Part shown: positions 1-46,305 of the stretch, one piece after another
How the letters are laid out: every line of letters starts with the position of its first letter
Position numbering within the stretch: the stretch's first letter is position 1
Virus record (IMG/VR): IMGVR_UViG_3300045988_122383
Location: 24,896 to 88,895 of that record
Length of the DNA: 64,000 nucleotides
DNA from: a virus
Reading direction: 5' to 3' (one strand)
Made by a program: the position numbers and the translations under genes
The notes under the pieces: generated by a model
The model's database searches: none
What the model was told of the DNA's origin: nothing
Seen by the model: the letters and a program-made list of their open reading frames with translations, nothing else

Positions 1-1816
1 CATCCTTGATAGCATTACGATTGGCAAACTTATTTACTTTACCAGTCACAACAAAAGTCATTCCCGTAAGATCAACAGCAGATTCTTTCTTGCTTTCTGG
101 CATTTCAAATTCAAGTTCTTCGGCTAATTTCTCAACCATTTCAAGGTTTTCTTTGAAATAATCATCCATTGACAATGAAGTATTGATACCAATACCATCA
201 ATATGTCCAAAATATTTTCTCTTTTTGATTCTTTCGATAAACACATCATATGGATTTTCGTTATTCGATAGAGAAATCTTATCAATAAGCTTGCAAATAT
301 CCTTTGCCGTTGACTTCCCAACAAGTTCAATGCCAAGTGCTGTTACGAAATTAACCAGTTTACATCTGCGACTTTCCTCGATACTATTTAATAAGGAAGA
401 AACACTTTTTGCACCAAATCCATCAAGGTTCTTCATCTCAGTTTTATGCTCTGCTAAATTATAAATATCTGTATAATCTTTTAGCCATCCAAGATCAATA
501 AATCTTTTCAGAGTTGCTTCGGATAAACCTTGAATATTCATTGCATCTCTGGAAACAAAGTTTACAAACTTGCTTAATAGCTTTGCCTTGCAATCAGGAT
601 TCATGCATTTCAGAACCTTACTGCCATTCTCGTTGATGATTTTTGCTGCGCCACCGCAGGTTGGACAAGTATCTGGAATCTTAAATGTATTGCTTCTTGT
701 CAGATTATCGTGTACTTTTGGGATTACCATGTTGCTTCGATAAACCTGAATCGTATCACCTGCACCAAGTTCCAATCCTTCAATATAACTTACATTATGT
801 AATGTAGCTCTTGTAGTTTCTGCACCATCAAGATCAACTGGATCGAATACTGCGACTGGATTAATCAATCCTGTGCGAGATGTATTCCATTCAATATCTC
901 TGATCGTTGTTTCGTAGAGGTCGTCGATCCACTTTAACGCCATCATATTTAATGGATGATGTCCTGTTGTTCCAAGTGATTTACCATACTGATAATCGTT
1001 ATAAGTAAAAATCAAACCATCAACAGGATATTCATATGCCTCTGGATCAAATTTCTCAATATATTCTTCGACATTATCTCGATTAACAATCTGATGTTCT
1101 ACAACGTCAAATCCCTGCTCTGCAAGATATTTAAAACTATCAGCAATACTTGACATTTCTTCTTCAGATACGCCATCAATTTTGACTAACTCAAATGCTT
1201 TGTAAGCAAGTTTTCTTTCCTTTGCTACATTCGCATCTAACTGCCTGATTGTACCTGCTGCCAGATTTCTTGCATTCTTGTATTTACCATGCAACGCTTC
1301 ATTGATTTTCTGGAAATTTTCATAACTAATAACTGATTCGCCACGTATCTCAATACTACGCTTGTCAGGAATCTCAAGAGGTAAATTGAAAATCATACGT
1401 GCTGTATGAGTCACATCTTCTCCAATTTCGCCATTTCCCCTTGTAATTGCTTGTTTTAAGCGTCCTTTTTCGTACCTTAGTACCACCGTCAATCCGTCAA
1501 GTTTCCACGATAAAACACCAATTTTATCCGCAAGAAATTTTTTGACCTCATTGACATCCTTCGTCTTCTGAGCTGATAACATTGGGCGTGTATGCTTTAC
1601 TTTAGCCAGAGAATCAATTATAAATCCTTGAACGTGGTGGATGGGCGAATTATTCAAAACAACGCCAGAATCTCTCTCAAGTCGTTCTAAAGCAGCGCAT
1701 AAATCGTCAAATTCTTTATCTGAAATGAGCGGATTATCCTCTGCGTAGTACGCATATGAAGCATCATTGATTCTGTCGATCAAGACATTCATTTCTTTCA
1801 CATATTCAGTTTTCAT
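1..1816 (-). CDS. ligA: NAD-dependent DNA ligase (LigA). The 5' end is in the window; the C-terminal ~50-65 aa (BRCT region) run off the left edge.
   Basis: Minus-strand ATG at 1816 opens a frame that stays open to position 1. The translation gives MKTEYVKEMNVLIDRINDASYAYYAEDNPLISDKEFDDL..., the adenylation motif SWKLDG, the TRGNGEIGEDVT motif and the Cys4 zinc finger CPTCGG...C..PDC, all hallmarks of NAD+ ligase. No ORF of 60 aa or more is reported in any other frame across 464..1767. Confidence 0.85.
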   Translation of the reverse strand, partial: MKTEYVKEMNVLIDRINDASYAYYAEDNPLISDKEFDDLCAALERLERDSGVVLNNSPIHHVQGFIIDSLAKVKHTRPMLSAQKTKDVNEVKKFLADKIGVLSWKLDGLTVVLRYEKGRLKQAITRGNGEIGEDVTHTARMIFNLPLEIPDKRSIEIRGESVISYENFQKINEALHGKYKNARNLAAGTIRQLDANVAKERKLAYKAFELVKIDGVSEEEMSSIADSFKYLAEQGFDVVEHQIVNRDNVEEYIEKFDPEAYEYPVDGLIFTYNDYQYGKSLGTTGHHPLNMMALKWIDDLYETTIRDIEWNTSRTGLINPVAVFDPVDLDGAETTRATLHNVSYIEGLELGAGDTIQVYRSNMVIPKVHDNLTRSNTFKIPDTCPTCGGAAKIINENGSKVLKCMNPDCKAKLLSKFVNFVSRDAMNIQGLSEATLKRFIDLGWLKDYTDIYNLAEHKTEMKNLDGFGAKSVSSLLNSIEESRRCKLVNFVTALGIELVGKSTAKDICKLIDKISLSNNENPYDVFIERIKKRKYFGHIDGIGINTSLSMDDYFKENLEMVEKLAEELEFEMPESKKESAVDLTGMTFVVTGKVNKFANRNAIKD

Positions 1817-1900
1817 AATTTTTGGATTTTCCTTTTCTTGTTTATATTGTTTAGTTAATTATTTTAATTTGTGTTTTCTATGTCTTTCAGTAACTGCCAA

Positions 1901-2539
1901 TTACTTCACTACATATATTTTTCTGTGCTGTTGCACATTTATTGTTTCGGAATGTGTTGATTTGAACACGTCTACATGCATTCCTTTTACTTTGCCTCCG
2001 CAATCTTCTGCCACAAAGATTGTGTCACCGTATCCCTCAATCTTAACTCTTGTTCCATAAGGGATAATGTTTTTATCAACCGCAATCGTATGATATGGTC
2101 GAGCAAATTTATGCCCTGCATGATTCCAAGCAATCTTAGATCCATATCCTTCAGAACATTCATAACATGGACAATATGCCGTGATCAAAAATGTTCCAAG
2201 TGAACTCTTTTCAAGTTCTCGCTTTCGCTTCAGCCGCTGTCGTTTAATTCGCAATCGTTTCTTTCGAAGTTTTTCTAATCGAATCTGTCTTGCTTGCTCT
2301 TCATCAGCTTTCTTACATTTCTGATAATGCTCATGAACGTCTTTTAATTCAACGCTTTGACTGATTGGATTGTTTGAAATCACATTGCCTTGCTTATTTT
2401 CCGCAACAGTTGTCTCTGTTGATAAGGTTGAAGTCTCCACCGAGGGTCGCTCCTCTGCTTTAACTGTGTGAGTCATAAAGCCTGAACACATTGCTAAAAA
2501 ACTAAACGAAATAACTTTCATTAAAAATCTTTTTCTCAT
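1901..2539 (-). CDS. Secreted 3D-domain protein (MltA-like cell-wall-binding/lytic-transglycosylase fold, YuiC/YabE-like).
   Basis: Signal-peptide-like N-terminus (MRKRFLMKVISFSFLAMCSGF) followed by a 3D-domain segment ITAYCPCYECSEGYG...IPYGTRVKIEGYGDTIFVAEDCGG...HVDVF. The start was moved to the ATG at 2539, which has an AAAGGAG ribosome-binding site; the track's first ATG sits at the predicted transcription start. Confidence 0.7.
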   Translation of the reverse strand: MRKRFLMKVISFSFLAMCSGFMTHTVKAEERPSVETSTLSTETTVAENKQGNVISNNPISQSVELKDVHEHYQKCKKADEEQARQIRLEKLRKKRLRIKRQRLKRKRELEKSSLGTFLITAYCPCYECSEGYGSKIAWNHAGHKFARPYHTIAVDKNIIPYGTRVKIEGYGDTIFVAEDCGGKVKGMHVDVFKSTHSETINVQQHRKIYVVK

Positions 2540-15899: not shown

Positions 15900-16442
15900 T
15901 TATAATCTGGAAAATGTTGTTGATCGCATTCTTTTAATCTTTTGTTGTATCGCTTGAAATGATGTACCAAACATTTTTGCGATTTCTTGATATGTATAAC
16001 CTTTTGATTTTAAATCAACAATCATTCTGTCCTTATTGTTTAGTGTGTAACATTTATCTTGAAAATTCAACTTGAAAATAATATTTTTTTCAAAATTTTC
16101 TTCATCCTTTAAAAGAAATGAATTTTCATTTTTGTCTTCATCCCAATCATCTAACATATGATTATATGAAATAGTATTCATATCACCCTTTCTTCTCTGC
16201 CGAAATCTGTATTTATTATATACCGTTATTTCATTTTGTATACATAAATACGCATATGTCGAAAATGATTTAGATCGTGTTTCATCATAATCAATTGCTG
16301 CCTTACACAACCCAATAGCAGCGAATCCATAATAGTCATCAAAATCTTGTCTGCGGATACCGCATTTTGTCATAGCAGAGTAAATCAAATTATGATTTTG
16401 TTCTACTAATTTTCTCTGTTCATCATTTAATTTCAACGACAT
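15900..16442 (-). CDS. Phage RNA polymerase sigma factor (sigma-70 family), paralog 1.
   Basis: Region-2-like FSTYAYLCIQNEI and a region-4 HTH YTYQEIAKMFGTSFQAIQQKIKRMR. The N-terminus LNDEQRKLVEQN is shared with the paralog at 22556..23089. Confidence 0.7.
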   Translation of the reverse strand: MSLKLNDEQRKLVEQNHNLIYSAMTKCGIRRQDFDDYYGFAAIGLCKAAIDYDETRSKSFSTYAYLCIQNEITVYNKYRFRQRRKGDMNTISYNHMLDDWDEDKNENSFLLKDEENFEKNIIFKLNFQDKCYTLNNKDRMIVDLKSKGYTYQEIAKMFGTSFQAIQQKIKRMRSTTFSRL

Positions 16443-20139: not shown

Positions 20140-20613
20140 TTACACCCATGCTCGAATACTACAATGACCCATCTTAAGATAAAAATCATATATATATGTA
20201 CATAATTTTTTCTCATCGTCAAATATCTTGTCAGACATTTGCACCCACCAAGCATGTAATCTTTTCTTTTCTGTATTCAAAACCAGTACAGGAATATGAC
20301 GTTCATATGCAATTGCAATCTCCATAGATGTACCAATGCTTTTCGGATCATTCGCATTTACTACAACAAGATCACTATTTCTAACAAAATTTGTATCAAA
20401 TCTCATTACTTCTTTTTCTGTATCATGCAACTCTGTTTGAAAATTGTAATAATCAACAGGGTTAATAATATTAACTTCTTTCATATTAACATTAAGAATC
20501 CTACGCATAGTAATAATTTGATTGCAAATTCTTTCTCTCCAAGCATTCTGCTCTTCAAACGATAAATCCTGCATACCGCCAGCCAAATAAATCTGAAATA
20601 TATTATTTTGCAT
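20140..20613 (-). CDS. Nucleoside 2-deoxyribosyltransferase-like (NDT/Rcl-fold) protein.
   Basis: N-terminal IYLAGGM and a catalytic-region-like SIGTSMEIAIAYERHIPVLVL, matching the NDT pattern YFAGxxF...D.GxxxExGxA. Confidence 0.55.
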   Translation of the reverse strand: MQNNIFQIYLAGGMQDLSFEEQNAWRERICNQIITMRRILNVNMKEVNIINPVDYYNFQTELHDTEKEVMRFDTNFVRNSDLVVVNANDPKSIGTSMEIAIAYERHIPVLVLNTEKKRLHAWWVQMSDKIFDDEKKLCTYIYDFYLKMGHCSIRAWV

Positions 20614-20941
20614 TTAATTTCTCCTCCACTTTCTTCGTTAAATAATCCAAAATATCTTTATCTGTTTTAAATGCCTGAGTATCTTTCATAATCCTCTCAG
20701 CACTGAGAATACATTGATTCATCTTTTTAAAATTATCCACTGTAATATGTGAGAAGAATCTGGAATCTTCTTTAACAGAGGCAGGATTCTCACCTATCTT
20801 TGTATAATGAAATTCTTCACAGATCAGTAGCATATCTTTACTACTTGGGACTCCACCCATTCTAAATGAAAAATTAACCACATGCTGAATTACTTTTGGA
20901 TTACATTTATTCTGCCAAAAATCTCCAATATGTATATCCAT
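20603..20941 (-). CDS. Hypothetical protein.
   Basis: ORF of 112 aa. Confidence 0.45.
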   Translation of the reverse strand: MDIHIGDFWQNKCNPKVIQHVVNFSFRMGGVPSSKDMLLICEEFHYTKIGENPASVKEDSRFFSHITVDNFKKMNQCILSAERIMKDTQAFKTDKDILDYLTKKVEEKLNAK

Positions 20942-21453
20942 TATTTTCTTTCTCCTTTCACAATATAGGACTCAATCAATCCTTTTCTTAAGCGATCATT
21001 CATGTCCTGAATGGCTTCCTCAATTGTTTTAAATTTACATGAACAAATATGCTCTTTTGTCAAATTAACAAATGAATATGTGCCATCGGATTTGTTCTTA
21101 AAAATAACAACTACTGATTCTTCTCCATTTGGTTTTTTGACAATGAATCGAAGTGAACCTTTTGCTGCTTTATTCGGCTTCTGTTTTTGATATTCAATAC
21201 AGATATTATAATCCGTTCTTGAGCCTCTACGGACTGCATATGCCTTTTTAATCTTATAATCTTCATTGTCTGATGCAACATAATATCCTGCCGTATCATA
21301 TTCTAATTGTTCAATACGCTTCGCATTATCATAAATATTGATATATCCCCAATCCCCAACTCTTGTTTGCATCATTTCTTCAATAAATTTTTTAACGGTA
21401 TATTCCTTGTCAAATTTTACATCACTTTTCAACAAATTAAACATTTCTGCCAC
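20941..21453 (-). CDS. Hypothetical protein.
   Basis: ORF of 170 aa. Confidence 0.45.
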   Translation of the reverse strand: MAEMFNLLKSDVKFDKEYTVKKFIEEMMQTRVGDWGYINIYDNAKRIEQLEYDTAGYYVASDNEDYKIKKAYAVRRGSRTDYNICIEYQKQKPNKAAKGSLRFIVKKPNGEESVVVIFKNKSDGTYSFVNLTKEHICSCKFKTIEEAIQDMNDRLRKGLIESYIVKGERK

Positions 21454-21706
21454 CTACTTTCTTATCAAATGTTTCTTGCAAATTTAACCAGAACTGACCA
21501 TCATCAGCAAACCCATAATGGTCTGCCATTGTTTTCGCAAATTCTTTTGTAACACTTTGTGATCCGTCAATCAACCCTTGAACATAATCAACATCCATGC
21601 CAATTTTACTCGCAAGCTGATAAGGAGTCATCCTGCAAGATTCAACAAATTCTTCTAAGCATTCGCCAGGATGAAAAGCAATTTCGTCTCCAATCTTTAC
21701 ATACAT
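21437..21706 (-). CDS. HigA-family (XRE-type) HTH protein.
   Basis: 89 aa with an HTH segment TPYQLASKIGMDVDYVQGLIDG and the HigA-hallmark C-terminus FGFADDGQFWLNLQ. Its start abuts the stop codon of the nucleotidyltransferase gene. Confidence 0.55.
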   Translation of the reverse strand: MYVKIGDEIAFHPGECLEEFVESCRMTPYQLASKIGMDVDYVQGLIDGSQSVTKEFAKTMADHYGFADDGQFWLNLQETFDKKVGGRNV

Positions 21707-21708
21707 TT

Positions 21709-22542
21709 TTACACCATTCCTCTCACAATTCGTTCATTTGTTGTCATCAAGAAGTTATTGATACGATCCCAGTCTGGTTCGTCTGGCAAATCAGTATTCA
21801 TATAATCATAATCAAATTGATAAAGTAATCCTTCAATAAAAACATCGTATGACTGATTTGGGAAATATTCTGTATGCTCATTGTGTTTGCCAAATCTATA
21901 TGTTTTATGCGTACTATTATATCCTTCTTTGATCTTTACAAGATCTTTTCCTATGTCATCCATAGATCCTAACATTGTTCCGTTATGCAATAATTCAATG
22001 CCCTGTAACAATAATCGAACTGCGTGCATCATTGATTTATTAGCGTATCGTTCCGCCTTTTGCTTTTCTTTCTCTGAATCTTTATTTTTATAATACTTAA
22101 AACTCGTTCGAGTCAGGCAATCACATATATATCCTTTATATGCATGATAAACTCTCTTAGATAAGAACATATCTCTATTTTTGATCAACTCCATACCAAT
22201 ATCGGATACACACAAATAACGGTCTGGCGCAAAATACAACAGTTCTAAATATGTAGGGTTACCTTTTGCAAGCATGTTAATCATCTTAATATGCGAATGT
22301 AACACAGTATCAACATCTTTATGATCGTCTGTCTTTTCAAGATTATTTGGATTATTATTCAACAAAATCTCTCTTTTATCACTAAGGAAAACACCACGTA
22401 AATCAATATCAGAATCCTCTGTATTTGTTCCGTAGGCATAACTTCCACCTAGCGTGAGAAAAGCGATTTTGTGAGGATAATCTCGTAAAAAGTCATACTC
22501 TGGAGACGAGTTTATGTAATCTTTTACTTCTTCAATTGTCAT
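21709..22542 (-). CDS. Pol-beta superfamily nucleotidyltransferase.
   Basis: hG[GS]x9-13Dh[DE]h motif GGSYAYGTNTEDSDIDLRGVF with a downstream acidic KDVDTVL. The start was moved to the ATG at 22542, which has an AGAGGTGAG ribosome-binding site. Confidence 0.55.
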   Translation of the reverse strand: MTIEEVKDYINSSPEYDFLRDYPHKIAFLTLGGSYAYGTNTEDSDIDLRGVFLSDKREILLNNNPNNLEKTDDHKDVDTVLHSHIKMINMLAKGNPTYLELLYFAPDRYLCVSDIGMELIKNRDMFLSKRVYHAYKGYICDCLTRTSFKYYKNKDSEKEKQKAERYANKSMMHAVRLLLQGIELLHNGTMLGSMDDIGKDLVKIKEGYNSTHKTYRFGKHNEHTEYFPNQSYDVFIEGLLYQFDYDYMNTDLPDEPDWDRINNFLMTTNERIVRGMV

Positions 22543-22555
22543 GATCTCACCTCTT

Positions 22556-23089
22556 TTATCCACATAATGCTTTCTTAAACTGTACAATATTTTGACTAAC
22601 CCACTGATGAGTGATTCCAAGCTGACTTGCAATTTGTCTTTGTGTTAAACCTTTCTGCTTTAACGTGATAATCTTTTTATTTCTCGGTGCCAATTTATCA
22701 AACTCATTTTGAAAATGTACCTTTGTAAACACCTCATCCTCTACATTATCTTTACTCATCAGTGTTGTTCCGATTGTAATATCATCTTCTGGTTCGTATC
22801 CTGCCAATGGTGTATCTAACGATTCAGCATTCCTATTCATTTTTTCTGTTAGTCTGTGCCATTTTGTATAATATTGATTCACTTCTGAACGTAATACCCA
22901 GAAGAGATATGTACCAAAAGTTCCTTTAGACTCGTCCCATTTTAATGCTGCTTTACAAATTGCCATACGACCAAGATCCATATATGTATCAAAATCTGTA
23001 AACTTTGTAAAATATTTTTCATGTAAATGCCAAATCAAAGAGTAATTATCTTCAATCAGCCTTCGCTGTTCATCATTTAGTTTCTTCAC
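22556..23089 (-). CDS. Phage RNA polymerase sigma factor (sigma-70 family), paralog 2.
   Basis: N-terminal LNDEQRRLIEDN, a region-2-like FGTYLFWVLRSEV and a region-4 HTH LTQRQIASQLGITHQWVSQNI. Confidence 0.7.
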   Translation of the reverse strand: MKKLNDEQRRLIEDNYSLIWHLHEKYFTKFTDFDTYMDLGRMAICKAALKWDESKGTFGTYLFWVLRSEVNQYYTKWHRLTEKMNRNAESLDTPLAGYEPEDDITIGTTLMSKDNVEDEVFTKVHFQNEFDKLAPRNKKIITLKQKGLTQRQIASQLGITHQWVSQNIVQFKKALCG

Positions 23090-23858
23090 ATCTCTTTGCC
23101 TCCTGTTCTTTAATGAATTTTTGTACTTCCTCTACATAACTTAATTCAAAATATCTTTCAATATACCCGCCCATTGGAACTCCAGTATATTTAAAATTAG
23201 GAATAGTTTCTTTTAGTTGACCACAAACCTCAGATCTAAATGTGTTTGTATATTTTTTCAAATCATTCATGGAATATGTTTGTTTAAAATGTGGCATATC
23301 AAGAGTGTTAAATAGTCTCCATAAAAAATTACTATTTCTATACTTTGTTAATTTAGCATCACGTAATTCATCCATAAAATCTCTCATAAATCGGATTATC
23401 TTATCAACATCTTTTGATGCTAATTCAAATACTAAATTTTCTGATTCATCATAATATGTATAATCATCATATTTTGTATTTGAATAAATCTTGTATACTT
23501 CATTTTTGCCTGATAGATTTGCTGATATATTATCAACATTCAAAACTTTGCCATTTTTCATAACTATTTCATCACTACACAATATCGCAGGAGATGTTAT
23601 AGAAAACTTATCCAATAAAACATATTGAGGGCTCAGATTAAAATGTGGATTATGATCGTCAAAATTACAAAACATCTCCGCTAACTCAATATGATCCTTG
23701 TTTCTCAATGAATTAATTTCTGTCCATTCATCACCAAGACAAATACCACGTACTGTTTTTAAAACCCTTTTTCCATAAATCTCTACATCGGCTTCCCAAT
23801 CTGGGTCTCTATGTTTACTAAAAGCAAGTTCAAATTCTCTTGTATTTTTCCTTGACAT
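23073..23858 (-). CDS. Hypothetical protein.
   Basis: ORF of 261 aa. Confidence 0.45.
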   Translation of the reverse strand: MSRKNTREFELAFSKHRDPDWEADVEIYGKRVLKTVRGICLGDEWTEINSLRNKDHIELAEMFCNFDDHNPHFNLSPQYVLLDKFSITSPAILCSDEIVMKNGKVLNVDNISANLSGKNEVYKIYSNTKYDDYTYYDESENLVFELASKDVDKIIRFMRDFMDELRDAKLTKYRNSNFLWRLFNTLDMPHFKQTYSMNDLKKYTNTFRSEVCGQLKETIPNFKYTGVPMGGYIERYFELSYVEEVQKFIKEQEAKRCEETK

Positions 23859-23861
23859 ACA

Positions 23862-24815
23862 TCACACTCCTAACACATACTTATCACTTCTGAACCCAGC
23901 TGCATTTGGATGACCACCGCCACCATATTTCACAGCAAGCTCATACACATTTACTTTATCCTGTTCTGCGGATCGCAACTGATATTCCCACATACTTCCA
24001 TTGAACGAAAAACCAATGAACATATCATATTTAGAAGCATCAATAGATTCAAAGAAATCATAATTGATTAATGCTCGGTTGATTGCATAGACTTTATGTC
24101 CCTCAAATATGGTTTCAAAACCATATGCTCTAAGATATTGTTCTGCATTTGCTGCTAAATACTCAATAATTGATAAGCCATCTGCTATCATATCACCAAT
24201 AATTTTTGCTGCTTCATAAATTCCTTGATCTTTATTTAACGTGTTTAGCAATGGACTTAACGCATCAAAATCATACGATTCAAATGCATAGTGAAATGCT
24301 TTTACGAATTGTTTTGACGTTTCACCAAAATAAAATGTATCCCACATGGCTGTATATTCTGCCAGTTTTGGATAATCTGCTTTATATTTATATATATTGA
24401 GTAATCTTTTTACATTTTTCTCATCCGTCCTCTCAATTTGCTCCCAATTTTCATCACACATATATTTAAAATATAACCATGCCAAATTCGCTCCTGAAAT
24501 ACCCGCTCCAGTAATTCTGATTCCTTTTACATCACACTTGAAATCTTTATACGCTTCAATCGTAGACTGATGATGGTCGATCCAAAATACATTCTTTGTA
24601 ATACTGAGCAACTGCCACATCTCTTCTGGCTCAATACTGTAGTCTACAATAAACACAAATTCATCCTGCTCAATGTCATGAAACGGGAATTTCATGCCGT
24701 AATTAATTTTTCGGAAGTCTTCTGGTTTAAACTCTAAACCTCGCTGTTCGCAAGCTTTTCTGACATAGAAACCAGATACGATGCCGTCCTGATCAACATG
24801 ATAAAAACATTTCAT
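23862..24815 (-). CDS. DHH-DHHA1 phosphoesterase (NrnA-like oligoribonuclease / pAp-phosphatase family).
   Basis: 317 aa with DHH motifs HVDQDGIVSG, DHHQS and the DHHA1 GGGHPNAAGF. The size matches NrnA. Confidence 0.65.
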   Translation of the reverse strand: MKCFYHVDQDGIVSGFYVRKACEQRGLEFKPEDFRKINYGMKFPFHDIEQDEFVFIVDYSIEPEEMWQLLSITKNVFWIDHHQSTIEAYKDFKCDVKGIRITGAGISGANLAWLYFKYMCDENWEQIERTDEKNVKRLLNIYKYKADYPKLAEYTAMWDTFYFGETSKQFVKAFHYAFESYDFDALSPLLNTLNKDQGIYEAAKIIGDMIADGLSIIEYLAANAEQYLRAYGFETIFEGHKVYAINRALINYDFFESIDASKYDMFIGFSFNGSMWEYQLRSAEQDKVNVYELAVKYGGGGHPNAAGFRSDKYVLGV

Positions 24816-24821
24816 TCTTCT

Positions 24822-25235
24822 TTACCCCTTTCGTTTATTCATTAAGTTAAGAAAATCTGCAACATCCTGCATAGCATGTACGCCAGAATATACTTTAATA
24901 CGATTTTCTTTCAATAAATTTTCGACTGCTTTTAAACTGTGGCTCATCTGCTTAGATTCTTTATTCTTTTGTTCCTGATAGAGATTAAGAAAGATCACTT
25001 TATCTGGTCGCTTATGAGAATCATCAACTACTTCTGCAATACTGTATACTCCTTTAATACCATTCGTAATGCCATACAGAACATAGTCAGATTCTTCTCT
25101 TTCCTTGACTTCCCGCAGTCGGTCTTCTTCACTCCAATTTTTTACGATTGGATTATAATAATCACAATCCAACATCTTCTGTAGCTGGTCTCTCCACTTC
25201 CATCCAGAGCATGTTCCGCCTAAAAACACTTTCAT
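24822..25235 (-). CDS. Small NDT/Rcl(DNPH1)-like fold protein; the assignment is tentative.
   Basis: N-terminal KVFLGGTCSGWKWRD resembles the Rcl YFCGSIRGG motif. The ORF is 137 aa. Confidence 0.35.
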   Translation of the reverse strand: MKVFLGGTCSGWKWRDQLQKMLDCDYYNPIVKNWSEEDRLREVKEREESDYVLYGITNGIKGVYSIAEVVDDSHKRPDKVIFLNLYQEQKNKESKQMSHSLKAVENLLKENRIKVYSGVHAMQDVADFLNLMNKRKG

Positions 25236-25531
25236 TCTTCTTTCTCCTTCACCTTTGCTTTTGATTGATTTGGCTTTTTAACCGATTCAACATATATTTC
25301 CCAGTCATCTGCATATACATCTTCCGCAAGAGGTATCCAAACTTCTGCGTTTTCTTTATCAAATAAAAAAATAATTGAATCTGGCTTATATTCACCCATA
25401 TCATTACACTCAAAATAAACATTAGTTAATTCTGACGAATAAATTTTCAAATACTTTTCCTTTCCCCAAATGCCTCTTCTTATAGTAGTTTTGTCTTTTT
25501 TTATTGCGATCATTGCTTTTATAAAATTCAA
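25232..25531 (-). CDS. Hypothetical protein.
   Basis: ORF of 99 aa. Confidence 0.4.
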   Translation of the reverse strand: MNFIKAMIAIKKDKTTIRRGIWGKEKYLKIYSSELTNVYFECNDMGEYKPDSIIFLFDKENAEVWIPLAEDVYADDWEIYVESVKKPNQSKAKVKEKEE

Positions 25532-25539
25532 TTAATTAT

Positions 25540-25851
25540 TCACCTCTTCCTTTTACTGTTAAAATCCCATCCTTGCTCAACCCAATCATTTGCGAAAATA
25601 TCCTCTTGTGTAGGCAACCATCCCAATGTTATAACTCCATTTTGGTCTCTACATAAGAGTGGTTTCATTTTATATTTTTTATCAAATGGAATAATCTCAT
25701 TTAATTCTTCTTCGCACATCATAAACACATAATCATAAGTTGTTCGTGTCTTCTTCCACGAACTACGACGATACAATTGTCTTGGATTAATTTCCATATT
25801 TTGCATCATCATTTCAAACGACATTCCTTGTTTCTTTTTTGCCATTGGCAT
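25540..25851 (-). CDS. Hypothetical protein.
   Basis: ORF of 103 aa. Confidence 0.4.
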   Translation of the reverse strand: MPMAKKKQGMSFEMMMQNMEINPRQLYRRSSWKKTRTTYDYVFMMCEEELNEIIPFDKKYKMKPLLCRDQNGVITLGWLPTQEDIFANDWVEQGWDFNSKRKR

Positions 25852-36221: not shown

Positions 36222-36818
36222 TTACTCATTGATTACTTCAATCTGGCACATCTTCATTGCTTCGAGTGCATTCTTGTGACTCTCTGGTGTTACACCTGCA
36301 CAACACGATGCATCTACAAGAATCTTTGCCTCTGGCAACGTTGCTTTTAGCAACATTGCATTTGAGATTACACAAATATCTGTACAAAGACCAATTAAGG
36401 TAATTTCAACATCTTCTGGATGAGACCTACCATCTTCACCGAATTCATCAGAACAATCGTCCATAAGTTCTAATGACCCAAATGTTTCTTTACAATAGTT
36501 CTCAAGAAGCCAAATAGCATTTTCTTGCTTGTCATTGCGACAAAACATCTCTGACGATAATAATGCCTTTCTAACTTCTTCATTTAAATGCCACCCATCT
36601 TCTCCGCAGATGCAATGCTTTACTGGAAGATTCTTTCCTTCCTGTGTAGATAAATAATTTTCATCGTGTGTGTCCATTGTTGCAACAATAATGCCATCAA
36701 AATTTTTAATTTTCTCAATTACTTTGGGAACAATTTCCTGTGCTTCTTTGGTTCCAAGGCTTCCGTCGATAAAATCATTCTGCATATCGACGACAACCAA
36801 TAATTTATTAACGTCCAT
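36222..36818 (-). CDS. Isochorismatase-family cysteine hydrolase (nicotinamidase PncA-like).
   Basis: VVVDMQNDF ... conserved Lys ... GLCTDICV catalytic Cys pattern. The ORF is 198 aa. Confidence 0.6.
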   Translation of the reverse strand: MDVNKLLVVVDMQNDFIDGSLGTKEAQEIVPKVIEKIKNFDGIIVATMDTHDENYLSTQEGKNLPVKHCICGEDGWHLNEEVRKALLSSEMFCRNDKQENAIWLLENYCKETFGSLELMDDCSDEFGEDGRSHPEDVEITLIGLCTDICVISNAMLLKATLPEAKILVDASCCAGVTPESHKNALEAMKMCQIEVINE

Positions 36819-44611: not shown

Positions 44612-45358
44612 CTATAAAATCCTAATAATTTGTTCGTAAATTGCAATCGCATTATCTTCTGGAAAGTTCTGGTTCACATGCATATGCCCAAAGAACCATT
44701 TTTGATAAATCACTTTGTCTTTTATTTGCTGTAAATAATCCGTTAACTTGTCAGATTTGTACACTCCTGATCCTTGATCCATTTGTCTTAAAACAGATGT
44801 GTATGGACTATGTGTAATAACGTAATCTACTTGGAAGTCATTTTTCTCTAAATTCATCACACCTTCTGCCATCTCTTTATCAGATGGCAATTCTTCTTTC
44901 CACCAGCTCACATGATTAATCCTAAACATTTTGTCATAATCTCTGTACCATTCATTAATTCTTGGATCGTCTGGCTCTAAAATTCCATCTTGCACATCAT
45001 GGGAACTGGCACCGCCAAATGTAAAGAATTTCTTTCCTTGAATTTCAAACACCTGTCCACGCATAAGATGAAATACAGAGTCTTTGATCTTGTGAATCTT
45101 TCCGCCACACCATTTCTCTACAGGATATTGATATAAGCGGTCGTAATTTTCATGATTCCCACATACAAACAATGTAGTAAATGGCTTGTTATCTAACCAT
45201 TCCAGATTATATCGTTCTTCTTTTGTGTCATGCCACAGTCCAAAATCTCCGCAGATAATCACATAATCATCTTTGGTTAACTCAACTCCCTCTGGGAAAG
45301 AACGACTGTTTAATCGAGTCATCCAATCCCCATGTGTATCTCCTGTTACAAATATCAT
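44612..45358 (-). CDS. Calcineurin-like metallophosphoesterase.
   Basis: Motifs GDTHGD, GDFG and GNHE. Confidence 0.7.
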   Translation of the reverse strand: MIFVTGDTHGDWMTRLNSRSFPEGVELTKDDYVIICGDFGLWHDTKEERYNLEWLDNKPFTTLFVCGNHENYDRLYQYPVEKWCGGKIHKIKDSVFHLMRGQVFEIQGKKFFTFGGASSHDVQDGILEPDDPRINEWYRDYDKMFRINHVSWWKEELPSDKEMAEGVMNLEKNDFQVDYVITHSPYTSVLRQMDQGSGVYKSDKLTDYLQQIKDKVIYQKWFFGHMHVNQNFPEDNAIAIYEQIIRIL

Positions 45359-46305
45359 ACAATTACTCCTTCCAATAACTCTTCTAATGCCTGCATATTA
45401 TCTTCATGTACTCTATCATCTTGATCTGCATCATCTTTGCCAGTCTTATAAGCAAACTTGATAATCTCCATAACTCTATCATAACTCACATTAACAACAT
45501 TTTCCTTCAATCCGTTAAAAGCCCCACTGATAATTTCCTTGTATGTCTGCGCAATATCATCAAACAATACATGAGTTTCTTCCTCTGTGATTGTTGCATA
45601 CAGAAATGTCATTGCAGGGCTACTATGATTCAATAATCTCATAAGTGTATACAATACGTTCTGATCATCTTTATGATCGACAAGTGTCCAATACACAAAG
45701 TTCTTTCGTAATGTATGCGTACCAATATTGTCCTCAATTCCAACTGCTTTAGCACCTTTTTTAACAAAATCCAAAGCATTTGCTTCAGTCATGTGTCCTA
45801 ATCCAGACTTACATGTTCCAAAAACATAATCATCCATTGGCACTTCGCCATCAATCTTGACATCATATTTAGTTCCTGCAACAGCTTCAAAGAAAATATC
45901 CACTGCTTCAGTTACCAAATCGTTAAAGTATACCGTTCTGAATTTCTTTGTTTTCTTTTCCTGCTTACGAGTCTTATCGTCTAATAAATCGCCCCATTTG
46001 AGTCTGACGATATCAGAGATACGATATGCTGTATTGTTTCCAACTGCAACCAAAAGATTGTTTCTGGCAGCTACATATCGTTTGTACTCTGTGTACGATT
46101 TATCAATCTGGTCTCTAAAATATGCATTAAAGGCTGCAAATTTTTCTTTGTTCTTAATTGGATACACTAAAGATGATACGCCTTTTTGTTTATTAGATCG
46201 AGTCCATTTAGGATTTCCGTCCTTACGTCTTTTGATCTTTGCTTCAGGTTCTTCTGCGTTATTATTGTTTGCTGTTTTAATAACTTCAAATTGTGTTGCT
46301 GCCAT
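45355..46305 (-). CDS. Tyrosine site-specific recombinase (phage integrase/Xer family).
   Basis: Catalytic Arg (AYRISDIVRLKW), His-x-x-Arg (GTHTLRKNF) and a C-terminal LLNHSSPAMTFLY containing the catalytic Tyr. Confidence 0.7.
   Translation of the reverse strand: MAATQFEVIKTANNNNAEEPEAKIKRRKDGNPKWTRSNKQKGVSSLVYPIKNKEKFAAFNAYFRDQIDKSYTEYKRYVAARNNLLVAVGNNTAYRISDIVRLKWGDLLDDKTRKQEKKTKKFRTVYFNDLVTEAVDIFFEAVAGTKYDVKIDGEVPMDDYVFGTCKSGLGHMTEANALDFVKKGAKAVGIEDNIGTHTLRKNFVYWTLVDHKDDQNVLYTLMRLLNHSSPAMTFLYATITEEETHVLFDDIAQTYKEIISGAFNGLKENVVNVSYDRVMEIIKFAYKTGKDDADQDDRVHEDNMQALEELLEGVIV

Follow-up and report, generated by a model that had tools for sequence, protein, structure and literature searches.

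The window analysed here (a stretch of 64,000 nucleotides of viral DNA) encodes two proteins, A and B, that share the NDT/TIR ('DrHyd') fold, are only remotely related to each other and are both predicted to be catalytically competent. The reading that we prefer, and to which we lend about half of our credence, is that protein A is a nucleotide-pool enzyme of the DNPH1/Rcl type and protein B an NAD-linked glycosidase acting in counter-defence, the two having separate jobs and not belonging to one cassette. Relatives of protein B are repeatedly tied to NAD+-based bacterial immunity and to NAD+ salvage, and protein B may play a part in phage counter-defence, possibly an anti-defence role previously undescribed for this fold in phages. 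Both reading frames, which an earlier note had picked out, are present exactly at the positions given in Table 1, as are the NrnA-like DHH and RlaP nucleotidyltransferase genes that it had placed between them and the motifs that it had quoted: in the ORF translations, IYLAGGM and GTSMEIAIAYERHIPVL form residues 8-14 and 94-110 of protein A, and KVFLGGTCSGWKWRD residues 2-16 of protein B. The DNA that carries both genes is that of a large gut phage.

Table 1. Positions in the window of proteins A and B, their neighbours and the NAD+ operon.
Feature	Position	Strand	Remarks
Protein A	20140..20613	-	157 aa; NDT-family PF05014 enzyme with DNPH1-like active-site pattern Y9/D73/S92/E98
Three small genes between RlaP and protein A	20603..21706	-	
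Protein without functional annotation	20603-20941	-	one of the three small genes; overlaps protein A start
Protein without functional annotation	20941-21453	-	one of the three small genes
HigA-like HTH	21437-21706	-	one of the three small genes
RlaP-type Pol-beta nucleotidyltransferase	21709..22542	-	PF10127 at 2.6e-23, phrog_388 at 2.7e-41
Phage sigma factor	22556..23089	-	Sigma70 r2 and r4 matches, phrog_351
DHH/DHHA1 phosphoesterase	23862..24815	-	317 aa, NrnA/RecJ-core size; begins 6 nt past protein B; DHH and GGGH motifs intact
Protein B	24822..25235	-	137 aa; uncharacterised PF15891 clade of the NDT/TIR superfamily
Tad2-like (DUF2829) protein	25232..25531	-	99 aa; PF11195 at 1.3e-11; stop overlaps protein B start (ATGA)
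Second Tad2-like (DUF2829) protein	25540..25851	-	103 aa; PF11195 at 3.8e-8
NAD+ operon, NARP1-like (context only)	33117..36818	-	8.7 kb from protein B
NadE	33117-33887	-	NAD+ operon
NadV/NAMPT-like	33905-35374	-	NAD+ operon
Prs-like, possible Adps	35371-36207	-	NAD+ operon
PncA-like isochorismatase	36222-36818	-	NAD+ operon

The NDT/Rcl-type fold that had been proposed for both proteins is borne out by their AF2 models, and for protein A also by Pfam and Foldseek. Protein A scores 31.9 bits (E=1.6e-7) against the Pfam HMM PF05014, above its gathering threshold of 28.8 bits, and the top Foldseek matches of its model (pLDDT 83.9) in the PDB are exclusively NDT, DNPH1, MilB and BcmB structures (TM 0.6-0.72), the best being the NDT 7m5h. 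An alignment of 26 homologues shows no variation at Y9, E68, S92, E98 or H120 and conservation of D73 at 90% or more, and the protein combines a Glu nucleophile, on the helix that follows strand 3, with a general-acid Asp and a Tyr in strand 1, as expected of this fold. It shares the Glu nucleophile motif with the NDTs (PF05014; 7m5h, L. leichmannii NDT), but differs from them six residues N-terminal to the catalytic Glu, where NDTs have an Asp that binds the 5'-OH. This Asp at -6 from the nucleophile, a feature of nucleoside-specific NDTs, is absent from protein A, whose invariant Ser92 faces it in the HMM alignment to 7m5h. A D92S change in an NDT reportedly served to construct a phosphodeoxyribosyltransferase and, together with the Ser of protein A, this points to a nucleotide and not a nucleoside as the substrate.

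Protein A also shares its fold with DNPH1/Rcl (Foldseek TM 0.57-0.63), and hhalign pairs D73/S92/E98 with D80/S98/E104 of DNPH1, so that Y9/D73/S92/E98 match Tyr24/Asp80/Ser98/Glu104, the Ser preceding the Glu by six residues in both. Identity is, however, only 15-19%, the Arg of the DNPH1 GSIRGG loop is missing from the counterpart loop of protein A (GGMQDLS), His120-x-Trp122 is an extra invariant element of protein A, and the latter is encoded by a phage gene beside a replication module. In DNPH1 a second phosphate-binding Ser is contributed by the partner subunit; the roles of its residues, and the ribose-to-deoxyribose switch caused by F17Y in MilB, have been described (PMC10603095). On this pattern, Glu98 of protein A would form a covalent 2-deoxyribosyl intermediate with Asp73 as acid/base; a preference for 2'-deoxy sugars would come from Tyr9, and the 5'-phosphate would be bound by Ser92. 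Judged by its sequence, the protein is most likely an ordinary 2'-deoxynucleotide N-glycosidase or transferase, which would hydrolyse or base-exchange 2'-deoxynucleoside 5'-monophosphates as a nucleotide-pool enzyme encoded just upstream of the replication module. In other SPbeta-like phages, homologues with 42-49% identity likewise precede the replication genes, and distant homologues lie between RNA-repair genes (those for RNA ligase and PNK), FolD and the replication module. No NAD-related association appeared when the gene contexts of protein A homologues were compared, and for this protein the idea of an NAD-linked function, which the earlier note had extended to both, is unsupported.

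Protein B scores 28.0 bits (E=3e-6) against PF15891 ('Nuc_deoxyri_tr2', which includes 4mcj (BDI_0649) and YtoQ (8of6)), 2 bits below the gathering threshold of 30 bits and over residues 2-66 only. Its full-length homologues (41-47% identity) reach 37-42 bits, and a near-identical protein (P0001) is labelled PF15891 in the precomputed annotation of the collection. To our knowledge, no member of this family has a known activity. The protein has 630 close homologues (its kin fall into 1039 clusters at 50% identity) and no PHROG, NCBIfam or PADLOC match; the profile of its clade retrieves no PDB sequence, none of the Pfam profiles TIR, TIR_2 and ThsB_TIR matches it, and no homology to Tad1/2, RyDEP, Acb or Apyc was found in Pfam, PHROG, PADLOC or PDB sequences. 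Its AF2 model (pLDDT 96.7) has the NDT-superfamily fold, with Glu68 within the helix that follows strand 3, and is equally close to TIR adaptors and to NDTs.

It was protein B that had been likened to Rcl for a YFCGSIRGG motif; in sequence that likeness finds no support (hhalign probability 0.45%), protein B having no such strand-1 loop with a Tyr, and the DNPH1-type residue pattern is found in protein A instead. The MilB/BcmB CMP N-glycosidases are likewise unrelated to protein B at the sequence level, the phosphate site of MilB (Arg23 and Ser97) having only a loose parallel in Arg15 and Ser65. The residues conserved in the clade are F4, G6-G7-T8, W14-R15, P29, W34, E42, Y54, T57 and G62 and, in the C-terminal part, Y64-S65, A67-E68, D71-D72 and N130; they include a Trp-Arg pair following strand 1 and an acidic face (Glu68/Asp71/Asp72) on the helix following strand 3, and the set is equally kept in 100 short, 14 mid-size and 15 giant proteins. 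The candidate nucleophile is ambiguous, since the helix register favours Glu68 and a low-confidence hhalign alignment to protein A sets Asp71 opposite Glu98. A Phe occupies the position of the Tyr of deoxy-specific enzymes, a MilB-like, ribose-tolerant pattern, and protein B would most likely act on a phosphorylated adenine/nicotinamide-type ribonucleotide (NAD+-derived or AMP-like), whose N-glycosidic bond it would cleave or exchange.

The link to NAD+ comes from relatives of protein B. Domains of this clade are fused to 3-5 TIR domains plus WD40/TPR in giant proteins, to TIR, NUDIX, a HAD-like domain or a phiKZ internal-head protein in others, and to RHS/YD repeats as RHS toxin tips; NUDIX, NADAR, RHS and patatin are found among their partners. 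TIR fusion or adjacency (a TIR ORF within 6 kb) was found in 21 of the 80 bacterial genome loci of B-like genes (26%). In four loci (L177, L178, L197 and L236) the gene order is Prs-B-NAMPT, in L237 it is NAMPT-B, Prs being undetected at that locus, and in a Pfam-labelled locus (L251) it is NrtR-Prs-B/HAD-NAMPT (NadV), with overlapping stop and start codons; in two more (L235 and L230) the B-like gene is followed by one for a CapV-like patatin. In bacteria, B-like genes thus stand where Adpp stands in NARP1-AP, between a Prs-like and a NadV-like gene. There is a precedent in accessory enzymes that are inserted between Adps and Namat and prepare non-canonical products of NAD breakdown, and RyDEP, a known phage glycosidase of a different fold, degrades cADPR signals and feeds NARP1. 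Tad2, RyDEP, NARP1 and NARP1-AP (Adpp) differ from protein B in fold and have no sequence similarity to it. These contexts, which lie outside the window, support a role of protein B in the NAD+/ADPR network; together with the coupling to a Tad2-like gene, they lend partial support to the NAD-linked idea of the earlier note for this protein.

DrHyd domains have been predicted to be NAD+-targeting effectors in bacterial conflict systems, and in a 2022 survey of viral NAD+/ADPr networks those of the ARC type were the only ones reported in viruses. Protein B differs from such TIR NADases and DrHyd effectors in being a free-standing 137-aa domain with neither a sensor nor a TIR Pfam match. It could itself serve host takeover as a toxin-like effector, with an NADase or adenine-nucleotide nucleosidase activity that shuts down host metabolism or excludes rival phages, given that its conserved residues recur in RHS tips, in TIR giants and in the phiKZ internal-head-protein fusions, which would be injected into the cell. 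We consider this very unlikely: an NADase would work against the phage's own NAD+ operon, presence within an NrtR-regulated chromosomal salvage operon suits an unregulated toxin badly, and a temperate C. difficile phage carries a homologue as a moron. On the preferred reading, protein B probably belongs to the phage's response against TIR/NADase immunity, to which it could contribute either by eliminating or converting a product derived from NAD or by feeding the Prs-like/NadV-like pathway with ribose-5-phosphate or ADPR-type intermediates.

In phages the setting is another one. B-like genes lie most commonly between RNR and DNA polymerase genes, and their neighbours include RNR, DNA polymerase B, ThyX and homing-endonuclease insertions, with TSCPD and FolD among the partners of A-like and B-like genes in nucleotide-metabolism/replication modules. 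Tad2, TIR or NAMPT were found near a B-like gene in no viral locus beyond the lineage of this phage. Some protein B homologues are interrupted by homing endonucleases, which typically split conserved nucleotide-metabolism genes. A plain nucleotide-pool role would suffice for this context, and A and B might then both serve in ordinary salvage, as nucleoside 2-deoxyribosyltransferases or as (d)NMP N-glycosidases that rebalance or sanitise DNA precursor pools; in the mosaic early region, their Tad2 and NAD neighbours would be there by chance. The presence of such genes in these modules of many phages speaks for it, as does the published action of phage PF05014 NDTs on dA in dZ phages. A comparison of relatives showed, moreover, that alleles are mixed in mosaic fashion throughout the 20-31 kb region, where gene adjacency is therefore weak evidence; that A and B are two ends of one functional cassette was rejected, the intervening region being mosaic. 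This alternative, the most serious that we weighed and still somewhat unlikely, leaves several features of the B clade unexplained: the TIR links, the RHS toxin tips, the internal-head-protein fusions, the NrtR-Prs-B-NadV operons and the CapV-like patatin partner.

Protein B lies directly behind the two Tad2-like genes, and a Prs-like/NadV-like pair is present in the same genome, features that recall the known phage counter-measures to NAD-based immunity (Tad2 sponges and NARP1). The 99-aa Tad2-like protein matches SPO1 Gp34.65/Tad2 (PDB 8sme) over its full length (E=3.9e-4), and the PDB matches of the 103-aa one are the AcrIIA7-type protein 8kbi and SptTad2. The pair is accessory, being present in 11 of the 23 relatives. 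Translational coupling to a Tad2-like gene would also fit a non-catalytic or slow-turnover binder, that is, a sponge for TIR-derived nucleotide signals or a decoy capping TIR assemblies, active side by side with the pair of Tad2-like sponges. Bacterial B-like domains occur inside or adjoining TIR proteins, the fold is no nearer to NDTs than to TIR adaptors, and the TIR-DrHyd-SLOG class includes some non-catalytic nucleotide sensors (PMC9503650). We nevertheless find such a binder improbable, because Glu68/Asp71/Asp72 and the entire pocket set are conserved with enzyme-like strictness, use as RHS toxin tips implies catalysis, and the 12 of 23 relatives that lack the Tad2 pair retain protein B. 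Co-occurrence with the NAD+ operon, which the earlier note had used as an argument, is undercut by several observations: the operon is distant (Table 1) and accessory, one relative (L001) keeping A, B and DHH in the absence of NadE and NAMPT, and the NAMPT match list omits 3 of the 12 large contigs of the same lineage and a second lineage.

The enzymatic reading of protein B includes a probable partner in the DHH phosphoesterase encoded immediately downstream, which has Pfam DHH and DHHA1 matches, a phrog_4771 match at 2e-34 and weak RecJ and NrnA matches in NCBIfam. Its gene is present in all 23 of the 23 relatives, and its adjacency to B is retained, in reversed order, in a second lineage (L045-47). 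RlaP, DHH and B-like genes cluster in both lineages in differing order, and might act together in RNA repair or turnover, for instance in clearing damaged or modified nucleotides that a nanoRNase releases once tRNAs have been cleaved. RtcB, Thg1 and an exoribonuclease flank protein B homologues, and distant homologues of protein A adjoin RNA ligase and PNK genes. We give this proposal hardly any credence, since each of these RNA-repair neighbours was seen only once among 133 neighbours, we know of no RNA-repair pathway that uses an N-glycosidase, and the clustering may reflect shared early expression alone. The sigma factor encoded between RlaP and DHH has no functional tie to protein A or B. 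The RlaP reading frame, listed as 21709-22632, begins mechanically at 22632, and the ATG at 22542 is the likely real start, the homologue in L001 being 276 aa long.

The earlier note had described two proteins, A and B, as N-glycosidase-like members of the NDT/Rcl fold that flank one gene set and may be linked to NAD+ and act in anti-defence. Both ORFs lie exactly where it placed them and contain the motifs that it quoted, and no unrelated fold emerged from structure prediction (pLDDT 83.9 for A, with NDT-type Foldseek matches, and 96.7 for B). Throughout the window the genes are read from the minus strand, at a GC content of about 33% (it falls to 0.284 across 42-44 kb). A scan of 19.5-27.5 kb returned no intrinsic terminator, and sigma-70-like promoter sites were as frequent as in shuffled sequence, so that operon boundaries are not given by it.

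Features of the window around proteins A and B, and bacterial loci with B-like genes (L numbers, retrieved loci)
Feature	Position	Strand	Remarks
Tad2-like gene	25851-25540	-	PF11195; 1st in transcription order
Tad2-like gene	25531-25232	-	PF11195 at 1.3e-11; full-length match to SPO1 Tad2, PDB 8sme; 2nd
Protein B (137 aa)	24822-25235	-	ATG overlaps stop codon of upstream Tad2-like gene; 3rd
DHH/DHHA1 phosphoesterase	starts 6 nt past B	-	4th
261-aa protein of unknown function		-	5th, after DHH
Sigma factor	22556-23089	-	6th
RlaP-type Pol-beta nucleotidyltransferase, then HigA-like HTH protein	21437-22542	-	7th, 8th
Two proteins of unknown function		-	9th, between HTH and A
Protein A (157 aa)	20140-20613	-	10th
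PcfJ		-	11th, after A
Replication module	2.6-15 kb	-	RecD2-like helicase, Pol III alpha, RecJ-like protein, primase; beyond PcfJ
Second sigma-factor gene	15900-16442	-	Early/replication region, like 22556-23089
NAD+ operon	33117-36818	-	NadE, NadV-type phosphoribosyltransferase, Prs-like, PncA-like isochorismatase
NrtR - Prs - B/HAD fusion - NAMPT type operon, Bacteroidota	L251 4246-8274		
Same type	L177 528-3714		
Same type	L197 4382-8511		
B-like gene and patatin, Chitinophagaceae	L235 5995-11194		
B-like gene and patatin, Chitinophagaceae	L230 5035-11175		

The NAD+ operon is situated 8.7 kb upstream of B. Its NadV-type phosphoribosyltransferase matches NF006629 with 428 bits and its Prs-like protein matches TIGR01251 at 1e-24, under the cut-off; this pair looks like the Adps and Namat of NARP1, a phage NAD+ reconstitution pathway, accompanied by extra Preiss-Handler-type enzymes. 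The window also carries a phage-encoded SPFH/Band 7 protein of 486 aa with a flotillin domain (31256-32716, minus strand) and a tyrosine-integrase-family gene adjoining a calcineurin-like phosphoesterase (44612-46305, minus strand), in a phage of about 160 kb.

Protein A is unremarkable: it joins a family already known, as a further DNPH1/NDT-like gene from a phage. It scores 31.9 bits against PF05014 (curated threshold 28.8 bits), and its 35 significant Foldseek matches in the PDB are all NDTs, DNPH1/Rcl, MilB or BcmB. Y9, G12, E68, S92, E98 and H120 are invariant in 26 homologues and D73 nearly so; hhalign places D73, S92 and E98 opposite D80, S98 and E104 of human DNPH1, which serve as acid, in phosphate binding and as nucleophile, respectively (PMC10603095), and in the HMMER alignment to the NDT 7m5h, S92 faces an Asp. 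MilB retains the equivalent Ser, and a Phe-to-Tyr change turns it from ribose to deoxyribose (PMC10603095). The Tyr and Ser of A at the DNPH1/MilB-type positions suggest, from these alignments, an enzyme that acts on 2'-deoxynucleotides and not a transferase of nucleosides. In other SPbeta-like phages, homologues with 42-49% identity are found at the corresponding position, bordered by replication genes on one flank and by RNA-repair genes, FolD and YopX on the other. No link of A to NAD was found. Participation of A in dZ (2-aminoadenine) synthesis was also considered, but no supporting Pfam match was obtained among the 50 larger ORFs of the window that were scanned.

When the region was compared by megablast with 50,697 phage records there was no match, and the same phage is represented in IMG/VR by contigs of about 160-169 kb. 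Across 23 relatives the gene order B-DHH-...-sigma-RlaP-HTH-...-A is kept, B and DHH being present in all of them, and from 20 to 31 kb nearly all genes exist as two or three alleles (96-99%, 80% and 63-69% identity for A; 100%, 82% and 64% for B). Since nearly every gene there is multiallelic, the idea that B is a hot-spot allele was discarded. The Tad2-like pair directly upstream of B is an accessory insertion, as only 11 of these 23 close relatives carry it; its upstream gene (25851-25540) matches an AcrIIA7-type protein and SptTad2. The NAD genes are accessory in this phage group as well: locus L001 retains only the PncA-like one, and the list of NAMPT matches lacks three of the 12 large contigs of the same lineage and also a second lineage. 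Judged from these relatives, A and B do not delimit a cassette and neither co-varies with the NAD genes; the proposed co-occurrence does not hold. A conserved pairing of A with B was likewise rejected: outside this lineage, a single Romboutsia-type phage has an A-like gene within 8 kb of B.

By sequence comparison, the relationship between A and B is no more than remote: hhalign aligns them with a probability of 23% and with a register shift at the catalytic helix, and therefore Glu68 is not preferred here over Asp71 as the nucleophile of B. The assignment of B to Rcl from its motif was not sustained. Its sole Pfam match is PF15891, restricted to residues 2-66 and two bits under threshold, and B gave no match in PHROGs, NCBIfam or PADLOC; a profile of its clade found no meaningful sequence match in the PDB. 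B has 630 close homologues, and the clade comprises 1039 clusters at 50% identity. Conserved in it are F4, G6-G7-T8, W14-R15, P29, W34, E42, Y54, T57, G62, Y64-S65, A67-E68, D71-D72 and N130, residues retained in all architectural contexts. E68, D71 and D72 share one face of the helix after strand 3, the catalytic spot common to NDT/TIR enzymes. No function was found in the literature for YtoQ, a structural-genomics PF15891 protein, and in the literature searched PF15891 is not mentioned and no NDT-like gene is tied to nadV-prs operons.

Giant proteins of 1000-2300 aa combine an N-terminal B-like domain with three to five TIR domains and WD40/TPR repeats; they make up 15 of the 150 top clusters of the clade, at least one comes, judged by its name, from a Bacteroidales MAG, and giant-type loci occur in Bacteroidota assemblies. 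Other fusions join the domain to a single TIR domain, NUDIX, a HAD-like domain, RHS/YD repeats or phiKZ internal-head proteins. With one genome per species, the domain is encoded in only 134 places, and at 21 of the 80 such loci read a TIR ORF is fused to the B-like gene or lies within 6 kb of it. Among the same 80 loci, the arrangement Prs-B-NAMPT was found in L177, L178, L197 and L236, and L237 has NAMPT-B, followed by a close homologue of 4mcj, another structural-genomics PF15891 protein. The Pfam-labelled operon of L251, from Chitinophagales, has overlapping stop and start codons, L197 also holds NUDIX-like and NADAR-like genes (recognised by sequence motifs only), and one Bacteroidota variant reads NUDIX - Prs - B - NADAR-like - NAMPT. 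In these Bacteroidota operons the slot between two NARP1-like genes is occupied by a B-like gene, a position that parallels that of the accessory Macro phosphatase in NARP1-AP. In two chromosomal Chitinophagaceae loci the B-like gene is followed at once by a CapV-like patatin phospholipase (PDB 8zr9, E=4.7e-23), with a P-loop NTPase of about 750 aa and a TIR-like protein of 433 aa on the opposite strand; at one of them (L230) there are also a second, degraded copy of B and a small gene pair of toxin-antitoxin type in appearance. Such a locus may be an undescribed defence module.

Taken as a set, these partners (TIR, NrtR-Prs-NadV, NUDIX, NADAR, patatin, RHS) point to the NAD+/ADPR network for the clade, which accords with what has been predicted computationally for DrHyd domains in the literature. 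Of the activities that would fit every context, the simplest is cleavage or exchange of the N-glycosidic bond of a phosphorylated ribonucleotide. An AMP/NMP nucleosidase is an alternative of equal chemical logic; it would supply ribose-5-phosphate for Prs or, as a toxin, destroy adenylate pools. A plain role in nucleotide pools is also kept alive by the phage contexts, where the commonest neighbours of B-like genes are RNR, DNA polymerase B, ThyX and homing endonucleases. In a temperate C. difficile phage the gene is a moron, and in a second phage lineage DHH adjoins B in reversed order (in its locus L045 RlaP clusters with both). Two metagenomic proteins, P0215 and P0232, join the domain to phiKZ-type internal head proteins; this fusion implies that in some jumbo phages a B-like enzyme would be packaged in the capsid and injected.

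An NAD-linked role of B in conflict, as the earlier note proposed, is made no more than plausible by the bacterial and phage associations. A wider reading, which we consider unlikely, is that the PF15891 clade is a TIR-equivalent enzyme family on both sides of the NAD+ conflict. On the bacterial side, the B-like domain would serve as an effector or handle signals, in company with TIR arrays, patatin and RHS toxins; on the phage side, the free domain, even packaged in the capsid, would intercept NAD-derived products, either hydrolysing them or exchanging their base for nicotinamide in the manner of an NDT, and yield substrates for the Prs-like/NadV-like reconstitution pathway. One phage glycosidase, RyDEP, is already known to degrade 2'/3'cADPR and to feed NARP1, but it has a RyR fold, unlike B, and a 2022 survey of viral NAD+/ADPr systems listed only ARC-type DrHyd in viruses. 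If this wider reading were true, the family would add a third fold, with a mechanism of its own, to the Tad sponges and the RyDEP glycosidases. The clade, with more than 1000 clusters, is uncharacterised and has no PHROG or defence-database entry, and it occurs in TIR giants, RHS toxins, NrtR-regulated Prs-NadV operons, jumbo-phage internal-head proteins and, here, behind Tad2-like genes. An NAD-derived substrate would make B a hitherto unrecognised enzyme of the NAD+-centred arms race and explain the unannotated gene of many NAD salvage operons; with a plain nucleotide as substrate, it would be a (ribo)nucleotide N-glycosidase widespread in phages and bacteria.

Some B homologues are interrupted or altered: in locus L078 (4056-5578) the homologue is cut in two by an oppositely oriented gene for a GIY-YIG homing endonuclease, the retrieved protein P0203 is a GIY-YIG plus B read-through, and the B gene of L023 is frameshifted. 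In a phage-like Romboutsia contig (L002), a DUF4062 gene (1411-2352, minus strand) is separated by about 3.6 kb from the B homologue and runs in the opposite direction to it; the DUF4062 family has been described as TIR-like NADases (2026 preprint).
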